Numbered from the stretch's first letter, positions 2,896 through 33,035 are shown. The stretch: DNA of 64,000 nucleotides from Patescibacteria group bacterium (GCA_041671565.1 JBAZBH010000001.1:7552-71551), one strand, 5' to 3'. Translations and numbers: made by a program. Notes: generated by a model not told the origin, from the sequence alone.

Positions 2896-4776
2896 TTAAA
2901 TCAAATCTTCAGGGTCAATATCGATCAGCCAATCTTCGGGCACGATTTCCAGGAGACGGCCAATCGGCCCCGTGGCTTTAATAATTATAACAAAGCGAAA
3001 TTGGCTCCTGACCCGGCTAACAAAAGCCGGTTGGGGCTCGTTGATTTGAGCTGGTATTTTAGCCTCTCTTTGTAGATTTGTCAATAGCCGATACAACTCC
3101 AGGGCTGATTTTTCCGCTAATTTTTGGCTCGGCGACTGAAAAATCAAGCGGGCGAGCCGGCCATAGGGCGGATAATTTAATTCGCGGCGAGTTTCCAGTT
3201 CATCGCGATAAAACTCCTCGTCTTTTTTGGCAATAAATTTTTGGATCACCGCTTGGTCGGGATTGTAGGTTTGGAGGTAAAATTCGCCTAGTCCGCTCCG
3301 GTCCGCCGCCAGCTCAAACTTTTTTAATAATTGCCAGAGCCGCTCGCCGGACCGAAAGCCCGGCAGATAGAATAGATTGTCAACAAAAAGCAGGCCGATC
3401 GCGCCGACTGCCGGCCAATCAACCAGATTCAAAAGGCGATCAGTACCAAAGTAAATATCAGCGCCGGCCAGCTGCTTGCCAGTAATTTTTTTGAAATCAA
3501 CATCTGAGTCCAGCCGTAAAATTTTAGCGCCGGGCCAAATCGCCGGTAATTCTTTTTCCAGTTTTTCGGTGCCGGAGCCGGAAAATTTAAAACTAGTGCC
3601 GCGGCAATTGGGGCAGGCGGCCGGCAAGGGCGACTGTAAATTGCAATGATGACATTTTAAGAAACCGCCTTGATGCAAGGGCAGCGGCAAGAGGCAATGC
3701 GGGCAATTAAACACAAAACCGCATTCGCCGCAAACTACCGCTCGGGCCAGCCCGCGCTGATTAAGATACAACACCGCTTTTTGTTTTTTTTGTTTGGCGC
3801 TAAGAAGCGCGGCGTTTAACCTCCCTGAAAGCGGAGAATAATTGCCGCCTTGCCGTTCGGTTTTTAGATCAACCGTCACGGTTTTGACTTGGTTTTTTGG
3901 TTCTTTAATCAACTGGCCAGCGCCAACCGTAGTTTGATAGTAGGTTTCCACGCGCGGCGAGGGCGAAGCGAAAATTATCTTGGCGCCAAAAATCTCGGCA
4001 AGCTTTTCGGCGGCGGCGCGGGCGTCATAGCGGGGATTCTGGTCCCATTGTTTATAACTGGACTCATGCTCGGCGGTGACAATAATTAATTTTAACTGCT
4101 TGAATGGCAAGCCGATCGCCGAACGGGTGCCAACTACTACCCTCGCTTCACCCAATAAAATCCGGCGCCAGGCGGCCGCGTACTGATTTTTATTCAACTC
4201 GCTGTGAACCACGGCTGTTTGCTCGCGCCTGGCCGGCGAGAGCAGCCGACCGAGAGCCGGCAGGTCGGCGATTTCCGGCGCCAAGATTAATATCTGCCCG
4301 GCCGTTGCCTTTATCGCCGAGAATAAAAAATTATTTAAATAATTATTGGTGGTAAAAAGTAGCAGATTCCGCGCCGCCAATTTTGGCGTTAAAATTTTGG
4401 CGGCGGTAAATTTGTCCCAATTAACTTTAAAATCTTTAACCGCCACTTGTCGCTTGGGCATTTTTGGCATCATGGACTTGATCACCAGCGGCAGGGCAGT
4501 GGCGTAATAATCCGTCAACCAGTCGGCAAGACTAAATTGTTCCGGCGTAAACAGCGCTTCCGGATCGGCGATTTTCTGGAGCGGCTTGATATATTTGGGA
4601 TTAAAATCAGACTTCTCCTTAACTTCTTTAATCACGGCTTGAATTTTCTTGCCGCGAAAGGGCGCCTCCACCACCTGCCCAACTCTAACAAAACCCTCTA
4701 AGGCAGAGGGTACGGAGTAGGTAAAAAGGCTTAATTTTTTGGGCAACCGCAGGAGGGGAATAAGATCAACAAACAT
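2896..4776 (-). CDS. priA: Primosomal protein N' (PriA) homolog. The Cys4 zinc-binding region is intact, but the helicase Walker A and B motifs are degenerate.
   Basis: The Zn-binding cluster CGECGFVFNCPHC...CHHC...CPNCRG is typical of PriA, as is the overall length and domain order. The expected GxGKT position reads TTNNYLNN. The DEEH position reads TAEHE. Confidence 0.8.
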   Translation of the reverse strand: MFVDLIPLLRLPKKLSLFTYSVPSALEGFVRVGQVVEAPFRGKKIQAVIKEVKEKSDFNPKYIKPLQKIADPEALFTPEQFSLADWLTDYYATALPLVIKSMMPKMPKRQVAVKDFKVNWDKFTAAKILTPKLAARNLLLFTTNNYLNNFLFSAIKATAGQILILAPEIADLPALGRLLSPARREQTAVVHSELNKNQYAAAWRRILLGEARVVVGTRSAIGLPFKQLKLIIVTAEHESSYKQWDQNPRYDARAAAEKLAEIFGAKIIFASPSPRVETYYQTTVGAGQLIKEPKNQVKTVTVDLKTERQGGNYSPLSGRLNAALLSAKQKKQKAVLYLNQRGLARAVVCGECGFVFNCPHCLLPLPLHQGGFLKCHHCNLQSPLPAACPNCRGTSFKFSGSGTEKLEKELPAIWPGAKILRLDSDVDFKKITGKQLAGADIYFGTDRLLNLVDWPAVGAIGLLFVDNLFYLPGFRSGERLWQLLKKFELAADRSGLGEFYLQTYNPDQAVIQKFIAKKDEEFYRDELETRRELNYPPYGRLARLIFQSPSQKLAEKSALELYRLLTNLQREAKIPAQINEPQPAFVSRVRSQFRFVIIIKATGPIGRLLEIVPEDWLIDIDPEDLI

Positions 4777-5824: not shown

Positions 5825-7285
5825 CTAAAGCGCGGTTAGAGTTTCACCGAGTGGGTGCAAAACCACCACTTTATACGCCGTAGAAACGATATTGGCCCAT
5901 TTATACCCGAGGCCGATAAAAGTCGCTTCATCCGGTATCCAGCGAAGTTTGCCGTTGGAAACAGCGTAGACTTCCGGCCATTCATTGGATTTGATCAGCG
6001 TGCCGTCTTTGAAAGTCACCGGCGCGACAGTCTCGTAGCCCTCTAATTCTTTGGGGGTTAATTTAATCAGTTTGCGGCCGGGATAATTGACCTGCATCAA
6101 TTCTTTGGACCAAATCGGCGCCTTCTTGCCGTCTTTGACAAAGAAAATGCCGCCGCTGGTGGTGTCTTGAGCCAAAATGCCTTGCGGATAGATACTGTTC
6201 TCAGTAATCGGATCACCTTCGAGAAAGTTATCGAGATCAGCCTCACCCACATCCTCCACTTCCTCCGGGTTCCAGCCGATTTTTTTGAAAACCGCCTGCG
6301 ACATGATCGGCCGCTTCTCGTCATCCACAATTAAATAAATTTGCCCACGCGGCGACCGCACCAGAGAATAATTGGCTAAGGAAATCGGCCAGCCCAAAGG
6401 ATAGAGGTCGAGATCAGACTGGCTGATTGGAATAATTTTCTTCTCGTCAAAGCGAGTGGCGAGCGCGCTTTTGGATTTAATCGGCCGGCGCGTGCCGTAT
6501 TGGATATACCAAACATCGGTTTGGCCTTTAACCTGGACTAGCGAACCGTCGGGATAGGGGAGAATCGGGATATACTGCCCGTCGCCGAACCAACTAGACC
6601 AAATGCTGACAAAATTGCGGTTGCCGTTGAGGTGCGGGGTGTAAACATACATCGCCGCCGTGGCCGTGTTTTCCGGCGTCACGGTGGTGTCGTCAATGTT
6701 GTAAGTCTTGCCAGGCTGAATATTAAAGTCGGCGATATTTGCTTTGCCACTCACCGGATCTTTGCCGAGATAATATTGGAATTGCGCCGCGGCGCTGTTA
6801 ATTTGTTTGTAAAAGCCTTTCCAAGGCTGAATCTTCGGGTCGCTGAGCGTACTGCCGTCGCGCACCATGTAGCCGGTCGCCCAGTCAAACCTTTTTGGCT
6901 CCGGCGCCGGATGGGTGACCAGGCTTTGTTCTTTTTGGACTAAGGCGAGAAGAAACGCCGGCGAAATACCCCAGCGAACAGCCACCTCATAAAACGCTTG
7001 CGCGGCAGTCACCGTCACCTCCGGTATTTGATTGCCATTCGGGTCTTTGCCGCTAGACAAACAAGTGTAAGTGGCAAGGGTGCTCTTTTGCCTTTCCAGA
7101 AATTGTTGAATCTCGCTTTGATTCATTGCCCGATAATTCAAAATATCCTGCTCGCTGATGAGATTATTGGGGTTAAAATCAGCGGCGCTGGCAAAATAAG
7201 CGGGGATTAATCCGCAAATTAAGCCTAAAATAACCAACAAAAATAGCCAATTGTTTTGGGCTTTATATTTTTTTATTTTTATCAT
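5825..7285 (-). CDS. Secreted hypothetical protein with an N-terminal signal peptide or membrane anchor.
   Basis: The N-terminus has a K-rich region followed by a hydrophobic helix (NNWLFLLVILGLICGLIPAYFASAA). A 486-aa ORF with no recognisable catalytic motif. Confidence 0.5.
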   Translation of the reverse strand: MIKIKKYKAQNNWLFLLVILGLICGLIPAYFASAADFNPNNLISEQDILNYRAMNQSEIQQFLERQKSTLATYTCLSSGKDPNGNQIPEVTVTAAQAFYEVAVRWGISPAFLLALVQKEQSLVTHPAPEPKRFDWATGYMVRDGSTLSDPKIQPWKGFYKQINSAAAQFQYYLGKDPVSGKANIADFNIQPGKTYNIDDTTVTPENTATAAMYVYTPHLNGNRNFVSIWSSWFGDGQYIPILPYPDGSLVQVKGQTDVWYIQYGTRRPIKSKSALATRFDEKKIIPISQSDLDLYPLGWPISLANYSLVRSPRGQIYLIVDDEKRPIMSQAVFKKIGWNPEEVEDVGEADLDNFLEGDPITENSIYPQGILAQDTTSGGIFFVKDGKKAPIWSKELMQVNYPGRKLIKLTPKELEGYETVAPVTFKDGTLIKSNEWPEVYAVSNGKLRWIPDEATFIGLGYKWANIVSTAYKVVVLHPLGETLTAL

Positions 7286-7565: not shown

Positions 7566-7841
7566 ATGAAAACCCAAAAACCGCCCCGCAAGGTTCACGG
7601 CCGCAAGACCCGTCTGGGCAAGTCATTTGCCTATTTGATGTCCATTTTGATCTTCATTTTGGCCGCGGCTTTTACCTGGCAGATCGGCCAAAGCCGCGAA
7701 AAACCGCTGATTTTCGCCCTTTATACGCTTTTGGCGGTCGCGGGAATGATCGGCATGGTCTGGCTGATTCGCCACATTGTCGACCACATGGACCGTTTTA
7801 TTGCCACGCCGACCATCGAGAAGGTTGAATCACCAAATTAA
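7566..7841 (+). CDS. Small membrane protein (two predicted TM helices).
   Basis: AGGAGG sits 7 nt upstream of the ATG at 7566. Two hydrophobic helices are present. The longer upstream ORF start at 7527 lacks an RBS. Confidence 0.5.
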   Translation: MKTQKPPRKVHGRKTRLGKSFAYLMSILIFILAAAFTWQIGQSREKPLIFALYTLLAVAGMIGMVWLIRHIVDHMDRFIATPTIEKVESPN

Positions 7842-19181: not shown

Positions 19182-20123
19182 CTAATCTTTTAAGGGATGA
19201 AACTTATGATGCGTTTTTTCCGCGTAACGGTCAGAGGCATGAACATAACGAGTGGTGGTATTCAACGACTCGTGACCGAGCAAATGCTGCAACGCGGCCG
19301 GATTGGCCCCTTGTTCAGCCATATAAGTTGCAAAACCATGCCTCAACGAGTGGGCGCTGATCGGTAAATTAATTCTTAATTTTTCCCGATATTCTTTGAT
19401 TTTATATTGCAAATAATTAGTGGAGATGCTTTTATTTTTTTCATTGCAATTACTACCGCGATAGGGGATAAAAAGGGCGGCCGAACTGTCATTCCGCTCG
19501 GCTAAATATTTTTGAATTGACTTATGCGCCCGCGGAGTTAAATAAACAAATCTTTGTTTTTTGCCCTTACCCATAATAAAAATTCTGCCGGTGTTGTCTA
19601 TCTGGCTCTTTTTTAAAGACAACAACTCGGAAATACGCATACCGGTAGAGAAGAGGACTTCGAGCATCGCCCGGTTGCGATCAGCAATAATTTTATTATT
19701 TTCCAGTTCAACCGGCGATTCAATCAATTTAATCATCTCCTGCAGCTCGGCGATTTGCGGATGTTTTTTTTCGGTTTTAATCAGCTTAACCGCTTCCGGG
19801 GCAATAGGGGAGACATAGTCCATATCAACCAAAAATTTAAGATATGATCTAAGGGCCGATAACATGCGATTCATTGAGAAGCTGGATAATTTTTTTTGGC
19901 CTTTATTTTGATTGGCAGTATTGCGGTCAATTGAAGTCAGGTAGGCTTTATAATAATTAATATCTTTCTTGGTCAAGTGATCAAACTTTAATTTAGCGTC
20001 AGTCAAATAATCCTCGAAGACCTTTAAGTCCCGCTCATAACTATATAAAGTTTCCTCGGAAAAATTATTAGTCCGGAGGTTTAATAGATATTCGTCTAGA
20101 TAGGCTAATTGATAGGAGGGCAT
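19182..20123 (-). CDS. Tyrosine recombinase/integrase (Xer-like).
   Basis: The catalytic residues are identifiable in order: R (GMRISE), K (GKGKKQR), H-x-x-R (HSLRHGFAT), H (LLGHES) and Y (RYVH). Confidence 0.8.
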   Translation of the reverse strand: MPSYQLAYLDEYLLNLRTNNFSEETLYSYERDLKVFEDYLTDAKLKFDHLTKKDINYYKAYLTSIDRNTANQNKGQKKLSSFSMNRMLSALRSYLKFLVDMDYVSPIAPEAVKLIKTEKKHPQIAELQEMIKLIESPVELENNKIIADRNRAMLEVLFSTGMRISELLSLKKSQIDNTGRIFIMGKGKKQRFVYLTPRAHKSIQKYLAERNDSSAALFIPYRGSNCNEKNKSISTNYLQYKIKEYREKLRINLPISAHSLRHGFATYMAEQGANPAALQHLLGHESLNTTTRYVHASDRYAEKTHHKFHPLKD

Positions 20124-21287: not shown

Positions 21288-22448
21288 TTAGTTTCCCTTA
21301 TACCAGTCGCTCCCCGAACTAAAATCCGTGGTCAGATTATTTTTCTCCTGATGGCGCTCCAGGGCGAGCCTGATCAGTTCATCGAGAAGTTTCGGGTATG
21401 ACAGGCCGCTGATCCCCCAGAGTTTGGGATAAATGCTGTGCGAAGTAAAGCCCGGAATGGTATTCGCTTCGTTAACATACAGTTTGCCCCCGGACAAGAA
21501 AAACTCCACTCGCGCCATGCCGGACAGGTCTAAGGCTTGATAAACTTGCAAGGAAATTTCTTGGGTTTTTTTGATCAATTTCTGGCTTAAATTTTGGGCC
21601 GGGAAATAATAAGCCGTCTGGTCGTCGTAATACTTGGCGGCAAAGTCGTAGAACTCGTTTTTGGGCGCCACTTCGCCAATCGCCGACGCCCGCGGCCGGT
21701 CGTTCCCCAGGACCGCGCACTGCAACTCCCGCGGTTTCCGTATCGCTTTCTCGACAATAATTTTCCGGTCAAAACGCGCGGCAAGGTTAATTGCTTTAAC
21801 GAGCTCAGGCCGGTTATGCGCTTTGGAAATGCCAACTGACGAGCCGGAATTAGCCGGCTTGATAAACAGCGGATAACCGAATTTGGCTAGGCGTCGCAAA
21901 ATAACCGAACGGTTTTTCTGCCAAGCGCTTTTCAAAAACCAGTCATACGGCCCCACCGGCAAACCGGCTTGCTGTAAAATCTTCTTCTGAATAATTTTAT
22001 CCATACCCACGGCCGAGCCGAGAACGCCACAGCCGACATAGGCTTTATTGGCCATTTCTAATAGACCTTGAATGGTGCCGTCTTCGCCATAAGTGCCATG
22101 CAGGACCGGAAAAAAAACATCAATACCATAACCATTGCCAAAATGCGCCGCTCCCCGGCCACCGGCCACTGTCGCCAACTTTTTCTCTTCCGGGTCAGCG
22201 AGCAAAAACGCCGGCTTAACCAAGGCGTGTTGATTGCCAGCCGCCAACTTCAAACCTTGCTGGAGAAACTTAACCGCGTCGCGGCCGACTAACCACTGAC
22301 CCTGTTTAGTAATACCAATCGGCACCACCGTGTATTTTTTCTTATCCAAAGCCTGCATCACTGATTGGGCGGAAACGATGGAAACCTCGTGTTCGCCGGA
22401 ACGGCCGCCGAAGAGGACACCGATGGTGAGTTTTTTGTGTCTAGACAT
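21288..22448 (-). CDS. ddl: D-alanine--D-alanine ligase
   Basis: An ATP-grasp protein with the Ddl N-terminus ([15 protein letters not shown]) and a C-terminal NEANTIPG-type region. Confidence 0.9.
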
Positions 22449-22456
22449 AGAGATAG

Positions 22457-22570
22457 TGTGAAGTTCAAAACCCTAAGTGCAAAGTTCAAATCAAGTTCAA
22501 AGATCAAAAGGTGCCAGAGTTTTGACATTTGAACTTGATTTGAACTTTGAATCTTTGAACTTTGAACTTA
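22457..22570. repeat. Copy B1 of the agttcaaa-type inverted-repeat element (about 50-bp arms built from agttcaa heptamers).
   Basis: gaagttcaaaaccctaagtgcaaagttcaaatcaagttcaaagatcaaa ... tttgaacttgatttgaactttgaatctttgaactttgaactt. A second copy lies at 30817. Confidence 0.8.
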
Positions 22571-22591: not shown

Positions 22592-23773
22592 TTATGTTAA
22601 TTGGCGTGGTAACAAAGGATTAATTCTAGCAACTATTTCATAATTAATCGTCCCAATCTTCTCCGCCAAATCCTCCGCCGTGATTTCTAATTTCCCCTGT
22701 CGGCCGATCAAGACAGCTTCAGCGCCGACCGGCACCGGGCCAGCCTTCGTCACTTCAACTATCGTCAAATTCATGCTGACGCGGCCGCGGACCGGACAAC
22801 GGACGCCGTTGATCAGCACTTCGCCTTTGTTGGACAAATGGCGGTCATAGCCTTCAAAGTAGCCAACCGGTAAAATCGCGAGTTTGGTTGGTCTGGCTGG
22901 TTTATAAGTGCAACCGTAACCAATACAAGCGCCCTTGCCTACATATTTTACCGCAATCACCCGCGTTTTCCAAGCGAGAACCGGCCGGAGACTAAACTTG
23001 GGATAAATTTTCAGAGTTAATTTTTTCGCGGCCGCGCTCGGCCAGAGGCCGTAGAGGCCAATCCCTAGGCGAATCAGATTAAACCGGCTGTCCGGCCGCA
23101 CCAGGGCCGCGGCGCTGCAAGCAAAATGCTTGAGTAAGATATTAATGCCGGCTTTTTCCAATTTAGCAACAAAACTATTAAACCGCTTAATCTGCAGATC
23201 CGTGAACTTCTGGTTCTCTTCGCTCGCCGCAAAGTGTGAGAAGACTCCCTCTATTTCTATATTTCTATATTTCTTTATTTCTTTTATTGTCTTTAACGCC
23301 TCACTCTCCCCCACTACTCCGAGGCGCGAAGTCCCGGTGTCATATTTAAAATGGATTTTCGCGGTTTTATTTATTTTCTTCGCGGCCGCATTTATCGCTC
23401 GCGCCGACGCCAAACTATACACCACCAAACTGATATTATTTTTGACCGCCAAGCCGAGGTCGCCAAAATAATATGACAAAACCAAGATCGGCTTTTTGAT
23501 ACCGTTCTTTCGCAGTTCCAGCGCCTCGTCCAGATTGACGACCGAGAGCCAGTCAACTTCCCGCTGAATCACTTTAGCCACTAGAACCATGCCATGGCCA
23601 TAAGCGTTACTCTTCACCGCCGGGGCCAGTAAAACTTTCCGCCCCAAAATCCCCCGGAATTGGCGGAGGTTGTGGCGGAGATTTGAGGTTGATATTTCTA
23701 GCCAAGAGTTATTGACAAAAATATTATTATATGCTAAGTTAATAAATATAAACTCCATGTGTACTAACCACAA
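22592..23773 (-). CDS. alr: Alanine racemase
   Basis: The PLP-lysine motif AVKSNAYGHG is present, as is a C-terminal beta domain. The N-terminal extension in the ORF track is probably not translated. Confidence 0.85.
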   Translation of the reverse strand: MWLVHMEFIFINLAYNNIFVNNSWLEISTSNLRHNLRQFRGILGRKVLLAPAVKSNAYGHGMVLVAKVIQREVDWLSVVNLDEALELRKNGIKKPILVLSYYFGDLGLAVKNNISLVVYSLASARAINAAAKKINKTAKIHFKYDTGTSRLGVVGESEALKTIKEIKKYRNIEIEGVFSHFAASEENQKFTDLQIKRFNSFVAKLEKAGINILLKHFACSAAALVRPDSRFNLIRLGIGLYGLWPSAAAKKLTLKIYPKFSLRPVLAWKTRVIAVKYVGKGACIGYGCTYKPARPTKLAILPVGYFEGYDRHLSNKGEVLINGVRCPVRGRVSMNLTIVEVTKAGPVPVGAEAVLIGRQGKLEITAEDLAEKIGTINYEIVARINPLLPRQLT

Positions 23774-24941: not shown

Positions 24942-25340
24942 CTATTCTGTCGTCACGCCGTCAAACTCGGGGCCGTTGGCTTCGGCCTCGGCCTTGGTGG
25001 CGCGAACGACGCCATCCTGATGGTGCGCCGGGGAATAAATGGTGTAAAGCTTTAGCATCTCGGAAGCGGAAGTATTAATCACATTATGCTGCGCGCCGGC
25101 CGGCACCACAATCGCCGACCCGTCCGTCACCGCGTACTCATTGCCGTCAATCAGGCACTTACCCATCCCCTTTTCAAACCGGAAAAACTGGTCATTGTCC
25201 GTGTGCACTTCCAGGCCGATTTCTTCACTCGGCTGCAAACACATCAGCACCAGCTGGCTGTGCTTGCCAGTGTACAGGACATGGCGGAAGTCGGTGTTCC
25301 GAAGGGTCTCTTTTTCAATGTTAGCGTTAAAGCCTTTCAT
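24942..25340 (-). CDS. Cupin-domain protein
   Basis: A small-barrel protein with cupin-like motifs (G.E..H.D.....F..G.G ... P.G..H) and metal-binding His residues. Confidence 0.6.
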   Translation of the reverse strand: MKGFNANIEKETLRNTDFRHVLYTGKHSQLVLMCLQPSEEIGLEVHTDNDQFFRFEKGMGKCLIDGNEYAVTDGSAIVVPAGAQHNVINTSASEMLKLYTIYSPAHHQDGVVRATKAEAEANGPEFDGVTTE

Positions 25341-25386
25341 AAAGTTAGAGGTTATTTATAAAATTTTATTTTTTTTCGTTCCCTTT

Positions 25387-25626
25387 TTACCTCCCAAAAC
25401 GATCTTCGGGGTTTTTGCTTTTTCTCACTTTTGTTGGTTCTCCATCTGGACCGATAGCCAAATCAGTATCAAGGTCTGCCGCCGCTGGTCTTTGATAGGT
25501 ACTCGGTAATTCATTCTTCTCTTTGAACAATCGCTCTATTTCAGCCCTTCGTCTTAAATCCTTAGCTTCTTTAGTTTCATTGGCGGGTGGTAAAAAATAG
25601 TCTGAGAATGGTTTTTCTGGCGGCAT
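25387..25626 (-). CDS. Hypothetical small protein
   Basis: A 79-aa ORF with normal GC content. No recognisable motifs. Confidence 0.3.
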   Translation of the reverse strand: MPPEKPFSDYFLPPANETKEAKDLRRRAEIERLFKEKNELPSTYQRPAAADLDTDLAIGPDGEPTKVRKSKNPEDRFGR

Positions 25627-25648
25627 ATTTTTTTAAGTTAAGGGTGAG

Positions 25649-25897
25649 TTAGTTTATTTTTTTAATTAATTTTAATTTCTCCGACTTTTTCAATTTCTTA
25701 ATCCGCGCTTCCTCGCGCGCGGCCGCTCCGCGATTCTTAAACTTCCTACTATAAACCACCCTCACCGGCCGCCGCGCCCTGGTATACTTGGCGCCGAGCC
25801 TACCGCCATTATGCTCCGCCACCCGCCGCGCCAAGTCCGTGGTAATGCCGGTGTAGAGAGTGGCGTCGGAACAGAGGAGGATATAGAGGTGGTACAT
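25649..25897 (-). CDS. GIY-YIG nuclease-domain protein (YhbQ-like).
   Basis: The GIY-YIG core is present as YHLYILLCSDATLYTGITTDLARRVAEHN. Confidence 0.7.
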   Translation of the reverse strand: MYHLYILLCSDATLYTGITTDLARRVAEHNGGRLGAKYTRARRPVRVVYSRKFKNRGAAAREEARIKKLKKSEKLKLIKKIN

Positions 25898-25928
25898 AGT
25901 TAGTTGTTTTTGTAAATTTTATAGTTAA

Positions 25929-26828
25929 TCAAACTAAAAACATTCGCTGGCAAAAAGCGCTAATTCCTATTCCATTTGTATTACAAGTCTGGACTCTATA
26001 TACCGGTACATTATTTATAAAAATAGTATAACCTACATTTATACCACTAGCCTTCTTAGCTATTATCACATCTTTTATTTTTGTCTGCTTGTCAATAGGT
26101 TTATAGATAGTAACACCCAAATCATTAACAATGATTACATATAAATCTTCGTCTTGACAATCTGTAATAAAATTTAAGAAATCATTTTTTTGCTTTGGTG
26201 TTAAATTATTAAAAGCATCAAAACAAGTAGTATTCAATAGAGATTGATATTTTTTACCATGCTCTCTGGCCCAAATCAAAAGTTTTTGATTATTCTTAGC
26301 CGTCCTCTTTAATTCACCCCTTTTATTAATATTCTTACCAGTAATTTTGAAAATGTGGTCATGTAGTTCTTTCCACATTTTATTTTGCTGTTTGATAAAA
26401 CTAAAACCGAAAAGTTTTTCTAATTTTCTTTGACCTAAATTTTTTAATGTTCCGGTTCCCGATTTAGCAATAGATTTTATGGAAAATCTTGTTTTCTTTT
26501 TGCTAATATGCTCCGCATCAACATCGGAAGTTGATTGCTCAATAACAAAATGACGGCCAGTCCAAACAACTCCGATGATCTTACCCTTTTTATCTATTTC
26601 GTTATCTAATATTTTTTTAATTTCTGGCTGAATTTTTATAAAATTATCATTTTGCAATTTTAATCTCTTCTTACCGTCTTCTCTTGCTAAAACTTGGTTA
26701 GATAATTTGGCTAAATTTTCACTATAAGAAAAAGTTATTTTATAAAGATGACAAATATACTGACAAACTAATAATTCAAAATAGTCCGCTTGAGCTCGAT
26801 TTGACTTTTCTTTATTACCCTTTTTCAT
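25929..26828 (-). CDS. Putative Type II restriction endonuclease. AT-rich, directly downstream of the N6-adenine methyltransferase.
   Basis: It lies 6 bp downstream of the methyltransferase on the same strand. Its composition is strongly AT-rich. No conserved REase fold is recognisable by eye. Confidence 0.45.
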   Translation of the reverse strand: MKKGNKEKSNRAQADYFELLVCQYICHLYKITFSYSENLAKLSNQVLAREDGKKRLKLQNDNFIKIQPEIKKILDNEIDKKGKIIGVVWTGRHFVIEQSTSDVDAEHISKKKTRFSIKSIAKSGTGTLKNLGQRKLEKLFGFSFIKQQNKMWKELHDHIFKITGKNINKRGELKRTAKNNQKLLIWAREHGKKYQSLLNTTCFDAFNNLTPKQKNDFLNFITDCQDEDLYVIIVNDLGVTIYKPIDKQTKIKDVIIAKKASGINVGYTIFINNVPVYRVQTCNTNGIGISAFCQRMFLV

Positions 26829-26834
26829 ATTTAA

Positions 26835-28289
26835 TTAGTTAAAATAAGCACTAACTATTTTATTAATTTCTTTTTGTTCGCGTTCAAAATTATAATTTAG
26901 ATCCTTTTTAATATTTTTAATAATATTTTCTGATATACTGGCTATGATTTTTATCTCTTGAACTTTAAAATTAGGCATGGGTAATTTTTTTATATCCCTA
27001 ATCTGAATTGAATTAGTGTGATTTAATAATTTAATTATTTTATTATAAATATTACTATTCAAAATACCAACAAAAAATTCTGGGGGGTATTTTAAAGGAT
27101 CTTTCGGAAAAAAACACATGGCCTTATTGCTTTCCCAAAGCGCTCCTCTTTCGGCTATCCTTGCCGACAAAGAAGAGCATATTCCTGAGATAATAAAACC
27201 GTCTTTATTACTTTCTAGATTTAAGTTTTTTGAGATTTTATAATTTTTTATAGATTGTTTATCCCACTTTATACAATATTCTACAGGAGAAAAATACTTT
27301 ATATCTCCACCCTTTTTATGATAAAACTTCCAATCACCGCTTGCCTTAATTACCTCTATCGGTATTTTCTGTAGACCACCGTTTCCAAACTGTCTCCCCC
27401 GATAATCTATAACACCTAAAAACGCTTTGTTATTTGTAGTATGCATCCCAAGCCCACCATTTAAAAAATCAACTAATTTTGGAAAAACTTTCATCTTATT
27501 AAGTATTGTGACATTGCCATTAAATCCAAAAATATAATCAGGGTTATTTAAAATTTCTCTTTGATTTATTCTTTTTTTAATCCCACTATAATCAGCTACT
27601 TGGTTGTTTCTACAATCGTTAAAAACAACAAAATGATTTTTGTCTGGCTTTTTATTTTTTAAATATATTATACAAGTATTTACCGACGCGCCGGTATCTT
27701 TAAATAAATTCTTAGGACAAATAGTTATTTCATTTATAGTATAGCTGGTCAGTAAAAATTTTCTTAAATTCTTATGAATTCCTAGGGTTAAGAAAGTATC
27801 GCTAATAATAAAACAAAGCTCGCCATAAATTTTTAAAAGTCGACAGCTTAAATAAAGAAACATGGCGTATGTATCATTAGCCCCTATTTCTTTATATATT
27901 TTTTTAAGCTCGCCCTTATTTTTTTTTATATAGCCACTTTGTTTATTAAGATAAGGAGGATTACCAATTATATGGCTAAACTCTTGTTTTTCGTTAAATA
28001 AACTATTACTCAAACTAGTTTCTAGCAGAGTATCTTTGATGACTATATTTTCTATTCCTAATTTAGTTATTATTTTATTTGTTTCGGGATTTATATCCCA
28101 AACGGTTATTTGTTGCGGCGATAATAATCTTTTTTCTAATATTTTAGAAACAAAAGCGCCATCACCTCCGCTGGGTTCAAGCAAATTACTTTTTGAAGTA
28201 AAACTTTTTACAAATTTATTAACCATATACTCAACGGTGTGTTGAGGTGTGTAAAAAGCTCCTAATTGTTTTTGTCTGTTTTTATCCAT
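26835..28289 (-). CDS. N6-adenine DNA methyltransferase (gamma-class, TaqI/Eco57I-like), with a C-terminal target-recognition domain.
   Basis: Motif X/I is LGAFYTPQ. Motif IV is IIGNPPYLN (NPPY). The composition is AT-rich. Confidence 0.8.
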   Translation of the reverse strand: MDKNRQKQLGAFYTPQHTVEYMVNKFVKSFTSKSNLLEPSGGDGAFVSKILEKRLLSPQQITVWDINPETNKIITKLGIENIVIKDTLLETSLSNSLFNEKQEFSHIIGNPPYLNKQSGYIKKNKGELKKIYKEIGANDTYAMFLYLSCRLLKIYGELCFIISDTFLTLGIHKNLRKFLLTSYTINEITICPKNLFKDTGASVNTCIIYLKNKKPDKNHFVVFNDCRNNQVADYSGIKKRINQREILNNPDYIFGFNGNVTILNKMKVFPKLVDFLNGGLGMHTTNNKAFLGVIDYRGRQFGNGGLQKIPIEVIKASGDWKFYHKKGGDIKYFSPVEYCIKWDKQSIKNYKISKNLNLESNKDGFIISGICSSLSARIAERGALWESNKAMCFFPKDPLKYPPEFFVGILNSNIYNKIIKLLNHTNSIQIRDIKKLPMPNFKVQEIKIIASISENIIKNIKKDLNYNFEREQKEINKIVSAYFN

Positions 28290-28295
28290 AATTAC

Positions 28296-28385
28296 ACTTA
28301 ATTTATCACGACTCCCTCTTGATCTTCTTCACCCCCCCATATACTTCCTCAAAACCTTCGGAATCTCCACCGAGCCGTCTTCGGC
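28296..28385 (-). pseudogene. Decayed duplicate of the serS 3' end. About 57 bp is roughly 90 percent identical to 29560-29616, with a 1-bp frameshift.
   Basis: cttcacccccccatatacttcctcaaaaccttcggaatctccaccgagccgtcttc here, versus cttcacccctcccatatatttcctcaaaaccttaggaatctcgaccgagccgtcttt in serS. Translation recovers ...DGSVEIPKVLRKYMGG and is then disrupted. Confidence 0.6.
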
Positions 28386-28530
28386 CCATCCCTACCATTT
28401 TCCCTAGAAGGTGAAAATGGTTATCCATATTTACAATGTGCATTTTTTGCACATTACTTTTATTGATATTCCAGTATGTGCAAAATTTGCACGGACTGAA
28501 CTAGTTCCAAAATGGAAACAATTGGGGCGT

Positions 28531-29421
28531 CTATTTTTTGTTATTAACACCAATTTTCCACACTCCTTTTTCACGAAAAGCCGGAATGGTTTGCCGTTTG
28601 GCTTTATTAAGAAGAGTAATAATGGATTCATCTTCTTTTTTGGCATATTCAGAAAGCCGAATAATTTTATCCCCTTTTAGATAGGCGATCCTTTTGTGAA
28701 AAGATTCTAAAAGCGCCAGGGATAAAACTTTATCCATGATAGCGGTTTTTTTCTTGTTGCTATTTTTGTATTCTCCAAAGGACTTATAATAAGCGGCCTT
28801 TTCTTTATCGCGAATAATAATCGGCGGAAACCCGGTTTGTAACAATAAGTAATTGATCAACACGCGGCCAATCCTGCCATTGCCATCACAAAACGGATGA
28901 ATATGTTCAAATTCAAGATGAAATTTGGAAATTTTTTCCAAAAAATATTCCGTGTGGCGACTTGAATATTCCAGAAGTAAGGCGTCGATCATCGCCTCGA
29001 GATGTTCCGGCGCCGGGGCAATATATGTTCCGACGCGGACATACTCATACTGCTGACGAAACCGGCCGGCGATTCCTTCGTCTATATTGGAAATCAACAT
29101 CTTATGCAGAAGCAAAATTAAATCCTTATCGATATTTTTTGTATTTATTTTATCTTTTACATACTCAAACACCCGCGCCAAATTTTTTGCTTCAAAAACT
29201 TCACGCACCGACACATTACGAGACACCTCCATATCCAAAAGAATCTTTTCTGTTTCAGAAATAGTGAGGGTCGAATTTTCAATCGCATTGGAGTTATAAA
29301 CCGACTCCGGAAGCTCGGCCTCAAATATAATATCCAAAAGAGGCTCCTTATTTTTCTTCAAGGAATCGTAATCCCGCCTCAAGGTATTAATTTTCTCCTT
29401 AATGTCTTTTGATATAGCCAT
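28531..29421 (-). CDS. Fic-family protein (AMPylator/toxin-like) with an intrinsic inhibitory motif.
   Basis: The Fic motif is HPFCDGNGRIGR. An N-terminal S-x-x-x-E-N inhibitory-helix motif is present (SNAIEN). AT-rich. Confidence 0.85.
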   Translation of the reverse strand: MAISKDIKEKINTLRRDYDSLKKNKEPLLDIIFEAELPESVYNSNAIENSTLTISETEKILLDMEVSRNVSVREVFEAKNLARVFEYVKDKINTKNIDKDLILLLHKMLISNIDEGIAGRFRQQYEYVRVGTYIAPAPEHLEAMIDALLLEYSSRHTEYFLEKISKFHLEFEHIHPFCDGNGRIGRVLINYLLLQTGFPPIIIRDKEKAAYYKSFGEYKNSNKKKTAIMDKVLSLALLESFHKRIAYLKGDKIIRLSEYAKKEDESIITLLNKAKRQTIPAFREKGVWKIGVNNKK

Positions 29422-29545
29422 AATAAAACCTTACTAAATTATACTATCATTATAGCAAATTCACGACAAAACATCAAGCTACCGTGAATTTGTAGCAAAA
29501 ATAGCATAAATTCACGCTAATATTGCAATAATTCCCTAAAAACCT

Positions 29546-30802
29546 CTATTTTATACTTATTTTCTTCACCCCTCCCATATATTTCCTCAAAACCTTAGGA
29601 ATCTCGACCGAGCCGTCTTTCTGCTGAAACTGCTCCAAAATCGCCGGCACCAGGCGGCTGGTCGCGAGACCCGAGGCATTGAGCGTGTGAACAAACTCGT
29701 TTTTGCCGGTCGCGGCGTCTTTGTAACGAATGCTCCCCCGGCGGGCTTGATAGTCTAGGGCGTTAGAGGCGCTGGAAACTTCTTTAAAGATATTCATGCT
29801 CGGGATCCAGACTTCGATGTCGAGCGTTTTCGCCATGGCCGCGGACGCGTCTTCGGCCGCCAGTTGAACGGTCTGGAAGCAAAGGCCAAGGCCGTCAACC
29901 AATTTTTCCGCGTTTTTGACCAATTCCTCGAGCGCTTTAGCTGAGTCGCCCGGCTTCACGAACTGGAACATTTCGATTTTATTGAACTGATGCCCGCGGA
30001 TCATTCCCCGCTCTTCTTTCCGATAACTGCCGGCCTCGCGGCGGAAGCAGGCGGAATAGGCGTAGTATTTGAGCGGTAGGGATTTTTCGTCCAGGATTTC
30101 GTCGCGGTGGTAGTTGCCAATCATCATTTCTGAGGTGGCATTCAAACAAAGCCGATCCTCGGTCCAGAAGAGGTCGTCACGGAACTTCGGCAAGTGGCCG
30201 GAAGTGTAGGCCGACTGCTCGGTCAAGAGATAGGGCGGCAAAATAAAGGTGTAGCCGTTTGACCGGTGAAAATCCACAAAGTAATTGAGTAGCGCCCATT
30301 CCAACTCCGCTCCCAGCCCGCGGTAAAGCCAAAAGCCGTTACCCGACATTTTGACCGCGCGCTCGTAGTCAATGATATTCAGGCTGGTGGCGAGATCCAC
30401 ATGGTCTTTCGGCGTGAACTTGAATACCGGCTTTTTGCCAAACGAGCGAACGATCTGATTATTTTCTTTGCCACCGGGCAGGACATCGTCGGCCGGCAGG
30501 TTGGGGAGGGCCGCCATGACTTCGTTTAATTTCCCTTCCACGGCTTTCAGTTCTTCGTCCAGTTTTTTGATCGCCTCGCCCACTTTTTTCATCTCGGCGA
30601 TGACTTCCGGGGTAGGCTTGGTTTTGGAGTGAGCGTTCCGTTCGGATTTCAGCTGATCAACCTCGCCGATCAGCCGCCGGCGTTCGGCGTCCAGCTGGAT
30701 AGCGGCGTCCAGGGCCGGGTCGAGCTTTTCCGGCGGGAGGCGTTTGAGGAGGGCGGCTCTTACAACCTCTTTTTGTTCAATGATACGATTGATGTCGAGC
30801 AT
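29546..30802 (-). CDS. serS: Seryl-tRNA synthetase
   Basis: An N-terminal coiled-coil arm is followed by class II motifs (FRREAGS..., GSRLV...). Confidence 0.9.
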   Translation of the reverse strand: MLDINRIIEQKEVVRAALLKRLPPEKLDPALDAAIQLDAERRRLIGEVDQLKSERNAHSKTKPTPEVIAEMKKVGEAIKKLDEELKAVEGKLNEVMAALPNLPADDVLPGGKENNQIVRSFGKKPVFKFTPKDHVDLATSLNIIDYERAVKMSGNGFWLYRGLGAELEWALLNYFVDFHRSNGYTFILPPYLLTEQSAYTSGHLPKFRDDLFWTEDRLCLNATSEMMIGNYHRDEILDEKSLPLKYYAYSACFRREAGSYRKEERGMIRGHQFNKIEMFQFVKPGDSAKALEELVKNAEKLVDGLGLCFQTVQLAAEDASAAMAKTLDIEVWIPSMNIFKEVSSASNALDYQARRGSIRYKDAATGKNEFVHTLNASGLATSRLVPAILEQFQQKDGSVEIPKVLRKYMGGVKKISIK

Positions 30803-30816
30803 ATAATATATTTATG

Positions 30817-30950
30817 TTTTAAGTTCAAAACCCTAAGTTCAAAGTTCAAATCAAGTTCAAAGATCAAATGATTATTCTCGGTTAGCCATGAAGCCGCTTT
30901 TGGCCTTTGGATTTGATTTGAACTTTGAATTTTGAACTTTGAACTTTTTA
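30817..30950. repeat. Copy B2 of the agttcaaa-type inverted-repeat element.
   Basis: ttaagttcaaaaccctaagttcaaagttcaaatcaagttcaaagatcaaa ... tttgatttgaactttgaattttgaactttgaact. Confidence 0.8.
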
Positions 30951-30960
30951 AAATCTTGCT

Positions 30961-31416
30961 CTATTTATGGACAAGTTTCGCTCCATTCAATTTGTCATTC
31001 CGCAACAACGAGCTCTTGTACTTCTCCGGCTGGAAGGGCTGGAGGCGGTGGACGGCGGCTTTAATCTTTAATTCTGCCAGCTTGCCGCGCAATTCGTCCA
31101 GGTCCATTTTCTGGTCGTAACCGAGGCAGACCACTTCGGGTTTTAATTCTTTAATAATTTTAAACCGGTTGGTCAGGTAGCCGAGAGCCGCGCGATTCAC
31201 CAGTGGGGATTTTTTCACGGCTTTGAGCCGGGCGTTTTCGTTAAACTGCGGACGCTGGCCTTTGTATTTTTTGACATTCAGATCGCGCGCCACCACCACG
31301 ATCAGATAATCGCCATAAACTTTCGCTTGGCGGAAAAAATCCAAGTGCCCGGGGTGTAGGCCGTCGAAAGTGCCGAAAACCATGACTTTAATCATAGTGT
31401 CTTTGTAGAAACGCAA
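30961..31416 (-). CDS. Cytidylyltransferase-like nucleotidyltransferase (HxGH type; RibL/FAD-synthase-like or glycerol-3-P cytidylyltransferase-like).
   Basis: The motif GTFDGLHPGH is present and the size is about 145 aa. The specific substrate cannot be assigned. Confidence 0.55.
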   Translation of the reverse strand: MRFYKDTMIKVMVFGTFDGLHPGHLDFFRQAKVYGDYLIVVVARDLNVKKYKGQRPQFNENARLKAVKKSPLVNRAALGYLTNRFKIIKELKPEVVCLGYDQKMDLDELRGKLAELKIKAAVHRLQPFQPEKYKSSLLRNDKLNGAKLVHK

Positions 31417-31424
31417 TGCTTTGC

Positions 31425-31472
31425 GTCTCCGTAATAAATCAAATAACGCGTTTAGAGACGCAAAGCATTGCG
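31425..31472. repeat. 22-bp-stem hairpin in the gap between lysK and the nucleotidyltransferase gene.
   Basis: aaacgcaatgctttgcgtctc ... gagacgcaaagcattgcgtctc. Confidence 0.6.
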
Positions 31473-31475
31473 TCT

Positions 31476-33035
31476 CTACCGATCGACTGCCTCATTAAGC
31501 CGTTTGACTACCAAATCACGGTCGAGGGACGCCAGGAGCCAACCGGCCTGGGGGCCGGAGTCTTTACCGAGAAATATACTGTAAATCGCGCTAAACAAGT
31601 CTTTTGGTTCAATCTGTAGATCCGCCTTGATCTGGTGGAGGGCGCTGTGCAGTTCTTCGCCGGAAAGCTTGGGCGAGGCAGAAAAAACTTTCAGGAGTTC
31701 GGCGAGCGCTTCTTTTTGTTTGGCGCTAAGGTCAACCGGCGGCAAGGTATCAAGAATATTAAATTTAAAACTGTCCGGCGCCGAAGTCGCGAGCCACTTG
31801 CGGGCGTAGTCTTCGCGCACCGCGATTTCCGCTTTTTCGTCCGCGGTCAGACCGTCCCCTTTCTCAGTCTCGGCGTAAGTGAGGACGCTGGCGCGGGGCA
31901 TTTGCAAGAGATAAGCGATTTTAGAAAAACGGAGGCGGTAGACCGGCGGTTTTTCCGGCAACAGCTGGGCGTACTCATAAGCCTGGCCGAGATCTGACTG
32001 CGGGTCTTTAAGGTATTCGTCAATACAGCGGTCCAGCTCGTCATAAAGCCGCGGCACGGCGTCGCCGTCCAGTTTGAACTCAATCCTGGTTTTGGCGCGC
32101 GTGCGCATCATCAAGAAACGAACCAACTGCGCCGGCAGAAGATCCACAATGTCAGCGGCTGAGACGCCCACACCCTTAGACGAACTCATCTTCTTGCCGC
32201 CATCAATCATGATCCATTCGTAAATATGGCTGTAAGGCACCGGGATTTTAAAAACTTGCTCGGCAATCGCCCGGGCGACGAAAAACGCGCCGCCTTTGGT
32301 GTAGTGGTCCAGCCCGGCGAGCTCCACGGCCGTGCCGCGGAATTGCCAACGCGCCACAATCGCTAGCTTGTACGGCAGTTTGGCATTGCCATCAAAGGGC
32401 GAAATCTGGCCTTGATAACCGCAGCCAACAGCCCAGTCAACCATCTTTGGCTCGCAAGTAAAACTGACCAGCTGGCCGTCCCAACCCGTGACTTTGGTCG
32501 TGCCCATCTTGCCGCACTTTGGGCAGATGACATTAAGCGGGTACCAGTCGTCGGCCTTGACCGAGCCGGAAACCGACTGATAAATCGCGCGGATCTCGGC
32601 GGCGTGGTCGAGAGCGATCCGGATCGACTCGTTGTATTCGCCGCCGCGGTAAGCGTCCGAGTCCAGAATAAACTTGGGCTCGCAGCCGAGTTGCTTGATA
32701 ACTTTTAGAAAATCCTGGGCGTAATAATCAGCGTAGCTTTTGTACCCCGGCTCCGGTGACGGAATGTTACATAAAGGCAAACCCATCAGCGGGCGGTATT
32801 TCTTTTCGTCAAGATAAACCGGCAGGCCATCCATCGGGTCAAAATCATCAAAACCATAGAGATATTCGGCCGTCTCGCCCGCCTGCCGCAGACCGCGGTA
32901 AATAGCGTCATGAATCAAGACACCACGGAGCGACCCGACATGGACTTTGCCCGAGGGGGTTTTGTAGTCAGTGACCAGATAACTTTTCTGCGGTTTTTTC
33001 CTGATTTCCTCAACAATTTGATTGACCCAAAACAT
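31476..33035 (-). CDS. lysK: Class I (archaeal-type) lysyl-tRNA synthetase
   Basis: The N-terminal HIGH-region equivalent is PSGKVHVGSLRG. A KMSKS-type loop is GKKMSSSKG. The length is about 520 aa. Confidence 0.8.
   Translation of the reverse strand: MFWVNQIVEEIRKKPQKSYLVTDYKTPSGKVHVGSLRGVLIHDAIYRGLRQAGETAEYLYGFDDFDPMDGLPVYLDEKKYRPLMGLPLCNIPSPEPGYKSYADYYAQDFLKVIKQLGCEPKFILDSDAYRGGEYNESIRIALDHAAEIRAIYQSVSGSVKADDWYPLNVICPKCGKMGTTKVTGWDGQLVSFTCEPKMVDWAVGCGYQGQISPFDGNAKLPYKLAIVARWQFRGTAVELAGLDHYTKGGAFFVARAIAEQVFKIPVPYSHIYEWIMIDGGKKMSSSKGVGVSAADIVDLLPAQLVRFLMMRTRAKTRIEFKLDGDAVPRLYDELDRCIDEYLKDPQSDLGQAYEYAQLLPEKPPVYRLRFSKIAYLLQMPRASVLTYAETEKGDGLTADEKAEIAVREDYARKWLATSAPDSFKFNILDTLPPVDLSAKQKEALAELLKVFSASPKLSGEELHSALHQIKADLQIEPKDLFSAIYSIFLGKDSGPQAGWLLASLDRDLVVKRLNEAVDR

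Follow-up and report, generated by a model that had tools for sequence, protein, structure and literature searches.

A composite defence-type island between serS and alr in a Patescibacteria genome, with a Fic cassette bracketed by two copies of the serS 3' end

The DNA analyzed here is a window of 64,000 nucleotides (nt) from a Patescibacteria group bacterium (GCA_041671565.1, JBAZBH010000001.1:7552-71551), a metagenome-assembled genome (MAG) of the Candidate Phyla Radiation (CPR) with a GC content of about 50%. Coordinates are counted from the first letter of the window. Between serS, which encodes seryl-tRNA synthetase, and alr lies an island (25929-29545) that carries a Fic gene, an N6-adenine DNA methyltransferase gene and a partner open reading frame (ORF299), together with a second, decayed copy of the serS 3' end. 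The original prediction, made from the sequence alone, described this segment as far more AT-rich than its flanks. In 400-nt windows, GC is indeed 0.23-0.31 across 26000-28199, spanning the methylase and ORF299, and 0.35-0.40 over the Fic region (28400-29599), against 0.43-0.45 in one flank (25200-25999) and 0.54-0.56 in the other (29600-30799). Every gene in the 21-33 kb portion of the window is on the minus strand. The features are as follows, with the neighbouring genes last.

29546..30802, minus strand: serS, seryl-tRNA synthetase, 418 amino acids (aa), the target gene (Pfam Seryl_tRNA_N and tRNA-synt_2b; conserved gene order)
29546..29619, minus strand: copy A, the functional serS tail, last ~24 codons (GC at third codon positions, GC3; codon usage; alignment; collinearity with the relative L132)
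29449..29516, minus strand: promoter and operator of the Fic cassette (promoter search; layout kept across cassettes)
28531..29421, minus strand: Fic protein, class II, 296 aa (Pfam Fic, PADLOC, FICD alignment)
28382..28530, minus strand: spacer from the Fic stop to the displaced serS tail, with two hairpins (28498-28519 and 28435-28455)
28306..28381, minus strand: copy B, a displaced serS tail of native type, frameshifted (alignment to copy A; codon usage)
26835..28289, minus strand: gamma-class N6-adenine DNA methyltransferase, 484 aa (Pfam, PADLOC)
25929..26828, minus strand: ORF299, 299 aa, probable restriction endonuclease partner (conserved pairing, AlphaFold2 model)
25649..25897, minus strand: GIY-YIG protein of 82 aa, gene of native composition bordering the island on the right (Pfam GIY-YIG)
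between the GIY-YIG gene and alr, minus strand: a 79-aa ORF, a cupin and a 267-aa ORF
22592-23773, minus strand: alr
21288-22448, minus strand: ddl
30961-31416, minus strand: cytidylyltransferase-like gene (CTase)
31476-33035, minus strand: lysS, class I (PF01921, Pfam)

The most informative feature of the island is the repeated serS tail. A copy of about 57 bp, roughly 90% identical and with one frameshifting deletion, had been predicted from position 28296 onward. Formal alignment of the two copies shows that the similarity is not spurious: 28322-28381 matches 29559-29619 with 91.8% identity over 61 columns (blastn E 3.7e-17). The length (57-61 nt), identity (92%) and deletion therefore stand, while the predicted start lies about 10-25 nt too far left. 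Copy B lacks one C from the C-run at 28332-28338, which shifts the frame and leads to an early TGA. With the missing base restored it reads ...DGSVEIPKVLRKYMGGVKKIKRES and terminates at the original stop, TGA 28306-28308; the functional serS end, copy A, reads ...DGSVEIPKVLRKYMGGVKKISIK before its stop. The repeat pair brackets the Fic cassette, as originally described, and the methylase begins 16 nt past the displaced serS stop.

All six substitutions between the two copies are synonymous, and at five of the six it is the functional copy A that has A/T and the dead copy B that has G/C. The GC3 of serS is 0.60-0.85 over most of the gene; it is 0.50 in the first 20 codons and 0.50 in the last 24. 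Codon usage also separates native serS from the island-type tail, the log-likelihood ratio over the six differing codons being -4.1 for copy A (island usage) and +2.6 for copy B (native usage). These likelihoods, together with the drop in GC3 in the last 24 codons, suggest that the present serS tail is the incoming one and that the decayed copy B is the displaced native tail.

The gene between the two tails encodes a protein that matches Pfam Fic (1.3e-21), with an active site, HPFCDGNGRIGR, at residues 175-186 that is invariant in 30 homologues. The original prediction of a class-II-like Fic protein with an intrinsic SxxxEN motif is borne out: the inhibitory motif S44-N-A-I-E48-N49 (SNAIEN) is invariant in the homologues and aligns in phmmer with TVAIEG of human FICD, which is also the best solved relative (E 5e-22). 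There is no separate antitoxin ORF beside the Fic gene. The protein is a predicted class II, glutamate-autoinhibited adenosine monophosphate (AMP)-transferase. Like other class II Fic proteins (FICD/HYPE, Clostridium difficile Fic, Bacteroides BT_2513), it combines HxFx(D/E)GNGRxxR with an N-terminal (S/T)xxxE(G/N) inhibitory helix. Its model, although of low confidence (pLDDT 64), matches the folds of BT_2513, FICD, CdFic and SoFic, the last being the Fic-plus-winged-helix protein of Shewanella, and PADLOC hidden Markov models match it as PDC-S04 (2e-38) and SoFic (2e-27). Unlike the known class II proteins, it is only about 25% identical to any solved protein, it ends in a short C-terminal domain outside Pfam and it is tied to a rigid three-box promoter.

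That promoter is the best promoter-like site of the region, a sigma-70-type site scoring 10/12 with a TG extension. Its core consists of a -35 element, TTGATG (29472-29477), and a -10 element, TATAAT (29449-29454). Box1, CGTGAATTT, lies at 29508-29516; box2, AAATTCACG, is inverted and lies at 29483-29491; box3, again CGTGAATTT, lies at 29457-29465, inside the 17-nt spacer of the promoter. The same layout occurs in 29 of 30 cassettes, in 28 of them with exact spacings: CGTGAATTT, 16 nt, AAATTCACG, 5 nt, TTGACA, a 17-nt spacer with a third CGTGAAT, and TATAAT. In two loci (L104 and L106) all three boxes have CGTTAAT in place of CGTGAAT. The boxes thus co-vary within loci, as would be expected if a single DNA-binding protein reads all three. 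The last ~45 residues of the Fic protein are predicted, with low confidence, to fold as beta-alpha-alpha-alpha-beta and end in IPAFREKGVWKI; we take them to be an excisionase/MerR-type helix-turn-helix motif. This C-terminal domain would repress the protein's own promoter through the three boxes.

Downstream of the Fic stop, the first ~70 nt of the spacer recur in L132, the closest relative, and both hairpin motifs recur in another cassette locus, L086. The 28435-28455 hairpin is also terminator-like on the plus strand. A circular permutation of the two hairpin motifs between the window and L086 was considered and rejected, as their order fits no single circle.

The remaining part of the island is a pair of co-directional genes. 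For the first, a gamma-class N6-adenine methyltransferase with an NPPY motif had been predicted, and the identification is sound: the protein matches Pfam Eco57I (1e-18), N6_Mtase (5e-18) and, weakly, TaqI_C, as well as PADLOC MTase_II (7e-45), and the motifs GAFYTP, LEPSGGDG and IIGNPPY follow one another in the gamma-class order. Its nearest solved relatives are M.BseCI and M.TaqI, and the GC3 of the gene is 0.22. ORF299 follows 6 nt downstream. It has no Pfam or PADLOC match and no significant NCBIfam match, a sequence-profile search of the PDB was empty, and Foldseek against the PDB returned nothing significant (best E 1.7). The weak Foldseek list is nevertheless enriched in PD-(D/E)xK nucleases (NucS, HsdR, Cas4, AdnAB, BbvCI, Hjc and Exo5). 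In the AlphaFold2 model (pLDDT 79), the invariant residues E77, D102 and S116-x-K118 lie in an alpha-beta-beta-beta-alpha core, as would be expected of a PD-(D/E)xK nuclease of the SxK variant.

ORF299 has 229 homologues; the best 120 of the 229 are either unnamed or named as Patescibacteria/CPR. Elsewhere, in two further contexts, it sits 1-3 nt after an Eco57I-type methylase of 480-484 aa, once in a DndB/PDDEXK neighbourhood (L126) and once between rimK and metS, again as an AT-rich insert (L129). At the nucleotide level these modules are homologous over exactly the stretch that opens with the methylase start codon and closes with the ORF299 stop, and no direct or inverted repeats flank the pair in the window, L129 or L126. 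As in Type II restriction-modification (R-M) systems with gamma-class (TaqI/Eco57I-type) N6-methyladenine (m6A) methylases, motifs X, I and IV (NPPY) are followed by a TaqI_C-like recognition domain, the partner gene lies directly downstream, and the pair is conserved as a unit. Unlike the partners in those systems, ORF299 falls in no described restriction endonuclease family. The predicted R-M pair stands as far as the methylase and a co-directional downstream gene are concerned. That ORF299 is the endonuclease is a reasonable inference from the conserved pairing and the PD-(D/E)xK-like model, rather than from a known family or a significant fold match. The pair is probably a Type II system made up of an m6A methylase and a Patescibacteria-specific partner, itself a probable PD-(D/E)xK nuclease.

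As had been noted originally, there is no integrase in the island; neither an integrase nor a transposase ORF occurs in 25929-29620. The window contains no tRNA or tmRNA genes that could be integration targets, and an Rfam scan of 25000-31500 gave only sub-threshold hairpin matches, all outside the island. A tyrosine recombinase gene is found at 19182-20123 on the minus strand, 5.8 kb from the island and after an ftsQ-like gene. It scores with XerC, XerD and XerA, below the equivalog cut-offs, and is judged to be of housekeeping type and unconnected to the island.

The gene order lysS-CTase-serS-alr-ddl recurs among 80 related genomes. In none of the 80 do the methylase, ORF299 and Fic genes follow serS; there alr follows directly or after unrelated genes. 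A comparable serS-end duplicate is likewise missing from all 80 related serS loci, which have only chance matches of 13-22 nt and a single serS end (L001, L002 and 78 others). This is what the original prediction of an insertion had led one to look for, with the qualification that the SerS proteins of these relatives are at most 78% identical (the nearest GTDB serS being at 78%), so that none is conspecific. The serS-alr interval is variable in its own right. It measures 158 nt in L002, about 330 nt in L007, L034 and L075, and 4.1 kb in L001, where it holds FecR, deaminase, hydrolase, DUF7670 and leucine-rich repeat genes. An exact-protein look-up of SerS and the GIY-YIG protein for island-free strains returned only contigs with the same arrangement.

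The closest relative is L132. Its SerS is 82% identical to that of the window and its Fic protein 97% identical, and serS is followed by Fic, a 270-nt spacer, an in-frame duplicate of the serS tail, an N6_N4 methylase, GmrSD, two ORFs (including a DUF7670 protein), GIY-YIG, NYN, alr and ddl. The serS-Fic-serS' layout is thus common to the window and L132, and the defence genes past the displaced tail differ. The L132 sequence is collinear with the copy A tail and with what follows it, and the left boundaries of the duplicates are ~10 nt apart. Divergence at four-fold degenerate sites between the two loci is 0.51 for serS, 0.52 for alr and 0.44 for the cytidylyltransferase gene. For Fic it is 0.27, and this value, set against that of serS, suggests that the Fic block was shared after the host lineages had split. 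Because the Fic cassette is common to L132 and the R-M pair is not, the island consists of at least two separately acquired modules. The original suggestion of one or two successive integration events is therefore right in that the island is foreign and composite; events of the integrase type are not supported.

Two further observations concern the genes around this block. A GIY-YIG gene occupies the equivalent place in L132 (8552-8803), its product being 73% identical at the amino acid level, and its four-fold-site divergence, calculated on only 24 sites, is 0.25, like that of Fic. It may be that GIY-YIG took part in the same exchange. Upstream of CTase-serS, the window, L001 and L002 have a class I lysyl-tRNA synthetase (PF01921). 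In L132 the corresponding enzyme (111-1616) is of class II (tRNA-synt_2) and has an OB anticodon-binding domain, and the difference may represent a non-orthologous replacement at a syntenic position.

The Fic cassette is found well beyond these two loci. This Fic protein shares 75-97% identity with more than 100 others, whose source names include Patescibacteria, Gracilibacteria and Peregrinibacteria; the nearest GTDB serS, by contrast, is only 78% identical, which marks the cassette as a widely transferred unit. Across 42 metagenome loci and several additional contigs, the cassette has a GC content of 31-42% in hosts of 28-58% GC. Nucleotide homology among cassettes is confined to the stretch between box1, ~100 nt ahead of the start codon, and a point about 5 codons short of the stop. 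No relatives of the cassette were found in viral contigs. The neighbours vary: argS and RadC; asnS/aspS; comM; a UvrD-type helicase-nuclease and RmuC; type I HsdR; an N6_N4 methylase with a TdeIII endonuclease; PRiA4_ORF3 and PIF1; an AAA_14/DUF4143 protein; serS; a metallo-beta-lactamase-fold (MBL) hydrolase; and a glycosyltransferase (GT4).

Several of these cassettes are flanked by duplicates of a neighbouring sequence. Repeats of at least 35 nt within 700 nt on both sides were counted, with random 1-kb segments of the same loci as controls; such duplicates flank 5/24 cassettes and 1/202 controls (Fisher p = 5e-5). In L132 the duplicated sequence is the serS 3' end. In L084 it is 100 nt of the MBL hydrolase 3' end, 90% identical and in frame to its own stop, with 6/10 differences synonymous and with the N6_N4 methylase and TdeIII endonuclease directly past the displaced tail. 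In L094 it is 42 nt of the comM 5' end, 83% identical. Here the functional copy is again the AT-richer one, and the displaced 5' fragment lies upstream of the cassette, beside ORFs without a family assignment (one of them, of 282 aa, was tested and has no Pfam match). In L138 the last ~38 codons of GT4 are duplicated, with ~65% nucleotide identity over a core of ~100 nt and about 55-60% identity at the protein level, and the frame of the displaced tail is intact over ~35 codons. The L137 footprint is an 83-nt intergenic repeat, 95% identical, in a repeat-rich region.

Since the cassette is flanked by duplicates of several different targets, it has no fixed attachment site. Nor is there a recombinase in the island or next to the Fic cassette in any of about 27 contexts examined. 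The site-specific integration into a gene terminus that was originally proposed is thus not supported, with duplicates of four further targets beside the cassette elsewhere. One integrase bound to a fixed attachment site cannot account for a single conserved cassette beside duplicates of five different targets, with repeats of variable length.

Some of these loci have peculiarities of their own. In L137, short-unit arrays (...GAAATACAAGGGCAGCCCTTT...) occur at 4419-4681, 5908-6051 and 7683-7762, on both sides of the cassette and 1.8 kb downstream; the flanking "duplicate" there is part of a dispersed repeat and not a gene end. Just upstream of the cassette, L138 (4380-4440), L086 (2090-2151, a second Fic 3' end), L100 and L098 have degenerate remains of another Fic promoter, or of a Fic 3' end and its hairpin, which suggests repeated insertion or replacement at occupied sites. 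In L091 (3380-4714) a second, longer Fic-domain protein of 444 aa is encoded directly downstream of the cassette, followed by an Exo_endo_phos nuclease.

Two kinds of known system resemble the arrangement in the window. In "insertion with long target duplication" (Furuta et al. 2010, Kobayashi laboratory; PMC2853133), R-M units without mobility genes are flanked by target duplications of >30 bp, mostly in naturally competent species. The class was set for units of <20 kb that hold R and M genes, and its mechanism was not established in that work. Its members are small units of deviant GC content without a transposase or integrase, and their repeats, which may overlap a gene 3' end, correspond to a single target sequence in insert-free genomes. 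The ~1.24-kb unit of the window, with its 57-61-nt repeat and no mobility gene, falls within the size and repeat limits of the class. Unlike the published cases, however, the flanked unit here is the Fic cassette, and the adjoining R-M pair has no repeats. The cassette repeats are also only 83-95% identical (~65% in L138), and by codon usage they look like the alleles of two genomes, not like a fresh duplication.

The second resemblance is to integrative elements whose tyrosine or serine integrase targets a tRNA, tmRNA or protein gene at its 3' end, which the element then restores. In these, the incoming DNA supplies a substitute 3' end and the native end comes to lie at the far border, so that attL- and attR-like direct repeats result; in the window, such repeats flank the Fic cassette only. 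Unlike these elements, the cassette has no integrase, no conserved att core and no fixed target, and it is about 1.1 kb long with a single gene.

The reading favoured here, with a probability of about 0.6, is that a composite defence-type island was built in the serS-alr interval by at least two recombinase-free insertions, in one of which the serS tail was replaced, along with the entry of the Fic cassette, by homology-anchored recombination. The cassette, a self-contained unit of ~1 kb, would have come in with a substitute serS tail attached to it. Through recombination within the last ~20 serS codons, the gene would have gained this incoming tail, and its native tail, now frameshifted, would have ended up beyond the cassette. 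The donor of the DNA would have been a relative in which Fic already followed serS, and the DNA taken up would most likely have been joined by homology-anchored recombination, either as a single-crossover insertion of a circularised fragment or by homology-facilitated illegitimate recombination with one homologous and one illegitimate junction. The R-M pair, 16 nt past the native serS stop, would be a separate module, one with no flanking repeats.

The allele-like copies in the window, L094 and L138, the shared serS-Fic block and the differing boundaries are in keeping with homology to the neighbouring gene as the guide for recombination. Natural transformation that depends on com genes and leads to homologous recombination has been described in Saccharibacteria, and com genes are conserved across the CPR (PMC10633639). 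Homology-guided uptake is consistent with transformation of this kind and with the insertion class of PMC2853133.

Several points weigh against this reconstruction. Since a conspecific genome whose site is empty was not found, the order and direction of events rest on composition and six codons. In each of the two genomes, moreover, copies A and B have lineage-specific bases in common (ATG in the window, TTG GGT in L132), and these need gene conversion or independent events. The homology route presupposes a donor with Fic beside the same gene and leaves the first insertion at each new site unexplained, and the L138 tails, at ~65% nucleotide identity, are too divergent for simple homologous recombination within the duplicated stretch. 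No flanking duplicate is present in 19/24 Fic contexts; either the footprint is often erased or not every route of insertion leaves one. Part of the reduction in synonymous divergence seen for Fic could come from compositional constraint. Finally, the C-terminal domain of the Fic protein, to which the repressor role is assigned, has no meaningful Pfam match (E up to 10).

A bolder version of the homology-anchored reading is that the Fic cassette is itself a previously unrecognised, recombinase-free mobile unit of Patescibacteria. It would move between genomes with a surrogate end of its latest neighbour gene (serS, comM, an MBL hydrolase or GT4), home by that end during natural transformation, and repair the target at every insertion, with the native end left behind as a fossil. 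We regard this as speculative and rather doubtful. A related possibility is that, besides any role in repression, the excisionase-like C-terminal domain and the three CGTGAATTT boxes act directly in the DNA transaction.

A first alternative is an integrase-mediated island. The element would have carried an attP resembling the serS 3' end and integrated site-specifically, the two copies would be attL and attR, and the integrase would have been lost or would act in trans. Direct repeats of a gene 3' end do bracket foreign DNA here, the incoming copy restores the gene as it does in tail-replacing integrative elements, and the same site is occupied in L132. The explanation is nonetheless unlikely. 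A recombinase is missing not only from the island but from the surroundings of the Fic cassette in about 27 contexts examined, the only one nearby in the window is of Xer type, and the same cassette is flanked elsewhere by duplicates of at least four other targets. The repeats differ in length (42 to 100 nt) and in their boundaries, and the cassettes are homologous no further than the promoter on one side and the Fic C-terminus on the other, with no att core in common. Two related candidates were set aside as well. For a Xer/dif-type module, no shared junction motif was seen by eye or in a repeat search, with no dif model applied. As for an integron gene cassette, the Fic cassette has its own conserved promoter and there is no IntI in the window region examined, with no dedicated attC model run.

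Alternatively, the R-M module may have made the duplicate. A fragment from a relative with the R-M pair directly behind its serS would have entered by homology-facilitated illegitimate recombination; its left end, with the donor's final ~60 nt of serS, would have been joined illegitimately downstream of a resident Fic cassette, and copy B would then be the donor-derived copy. The distance of 16 nt between copy B and the methylase start would fit, and displaced tails directly precede other foreign modules too: the N6_N4 methylase and GmrSD in L132, the methylase and TdeIII in L084, and PRiA4_ORF3 and PIF1 in L138. The differing copy B boundaries of the window and L132, and the L138 tail as a divergent allele with intact frame, are likewise in keeping with such a joining. 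However, it is copy A and not copy B that has the foreign codon usage, with the GC3 of serS dropping exactly there, and what was displaced in L094 is a 5' end, lying upstream of the cassette beside ORFs without a family assignment. An origin of the duplicate with the R-M module is for these reasons improbable, although both processes may have acted in succession and some displaced tails may represent the left ends of modules that came in downstream.

Local duplication followed by decay, in which the serS end would have been duplicated in situ through target-site duplication or replication slippage and no foreign tail would be involved, is very unlikely. In its favour, the published cases of long target duplication have near-identical repeats from a single target (PMC2853133), and the 6/10 synonymous differences in L084 fit one constrained and one neutral copy. 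A purely statistical argument from synonymous and nonsynonymous differences proved not to be decisive alone (about 0.1 for the window; L084 fits neutral decay), and the direction of the changes and L138 are relied on instead. In the window, the excess of A/T in the functional copy and of G/C in the dead one at 5/6 differences is the opposite of AT-biased decay, and the functional copy in L094 is AT-richer in the same way. In L138 the copies are only ~65% identical and yet the frame has stayed open over ~35 codons.

The idea that the AT-rich segment was misjoined to a serS contig as an assembly chimera, which could be entertained since the source is a MAG and another assembly of the same organism (ERZ27249449) breaks inside Fic, can be dismissed as extremely improbable: Logan contig L083 is identical to the window across the serS tail, Fic, copy B, the methylase, ORF299, GIY-YIG and the cupin, contig L081 runs from lysS through serS into Fic, the junctions are reproduced exactly in L081, L082 and L083, and the independent relative L132 has the same serS-Fic-serS' layout. 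The break in ERZ27249449 separates L081 from L082, which overlap by only 14 nt, and may reflect low coverage or strain heterogeneity at the cassette.

Two other repeated or palindromic structures occur around the island. A palindromic element of ~110-130 nt is present twice, in the ddl/alr gap (22461-22569) and in the serS/CTase gap (30821-30946), and the pair brackets the whole variable segment from serS to alr. Its arms (AAGTTCAAAACCCTAAGTTCAAAGTTCAAATCAAGTTCAAAGATCAAA) are 98% identical between the copies, the loops differ, and the element is missing from L132 and every other fetched locus. The 59-nt CTase/lysS gap holds a hairpin (31405-31479) with 25-nt arms that are 96% complementary and with only sub-threshold, miRNA-like Rfam matches.

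Taken by itself, the locus is an ordinary defence-type island of known gene families in a variable intergenic slot of a CPR genome, its genes having a presumed role in defence. Its added interest lies in the recurrent, recombinase-free and tail-duplicating insertion of a widespread and highly conserved Patescibacteria Fic cassette, which is very abundant in Patescibacteria from groundwater and sediment. To our knowledge, the mechanism of insertion with long target duplication is still open in the later literature. The hundreds of near-identical cassettes, in varied surroundings, constitute a natural data set on the spread of small defence or toxin genes in hosts whose genomes are tiny, naturally transformable and largely without classical mobile elements. 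ORF299 is a candidate for a Patescibacteria-specific family of restriction enzymes with at least 229 members, and the compact pair of Fic protein and operator, with its co-varying boxes, is suited to the study of Fic autoregulation.

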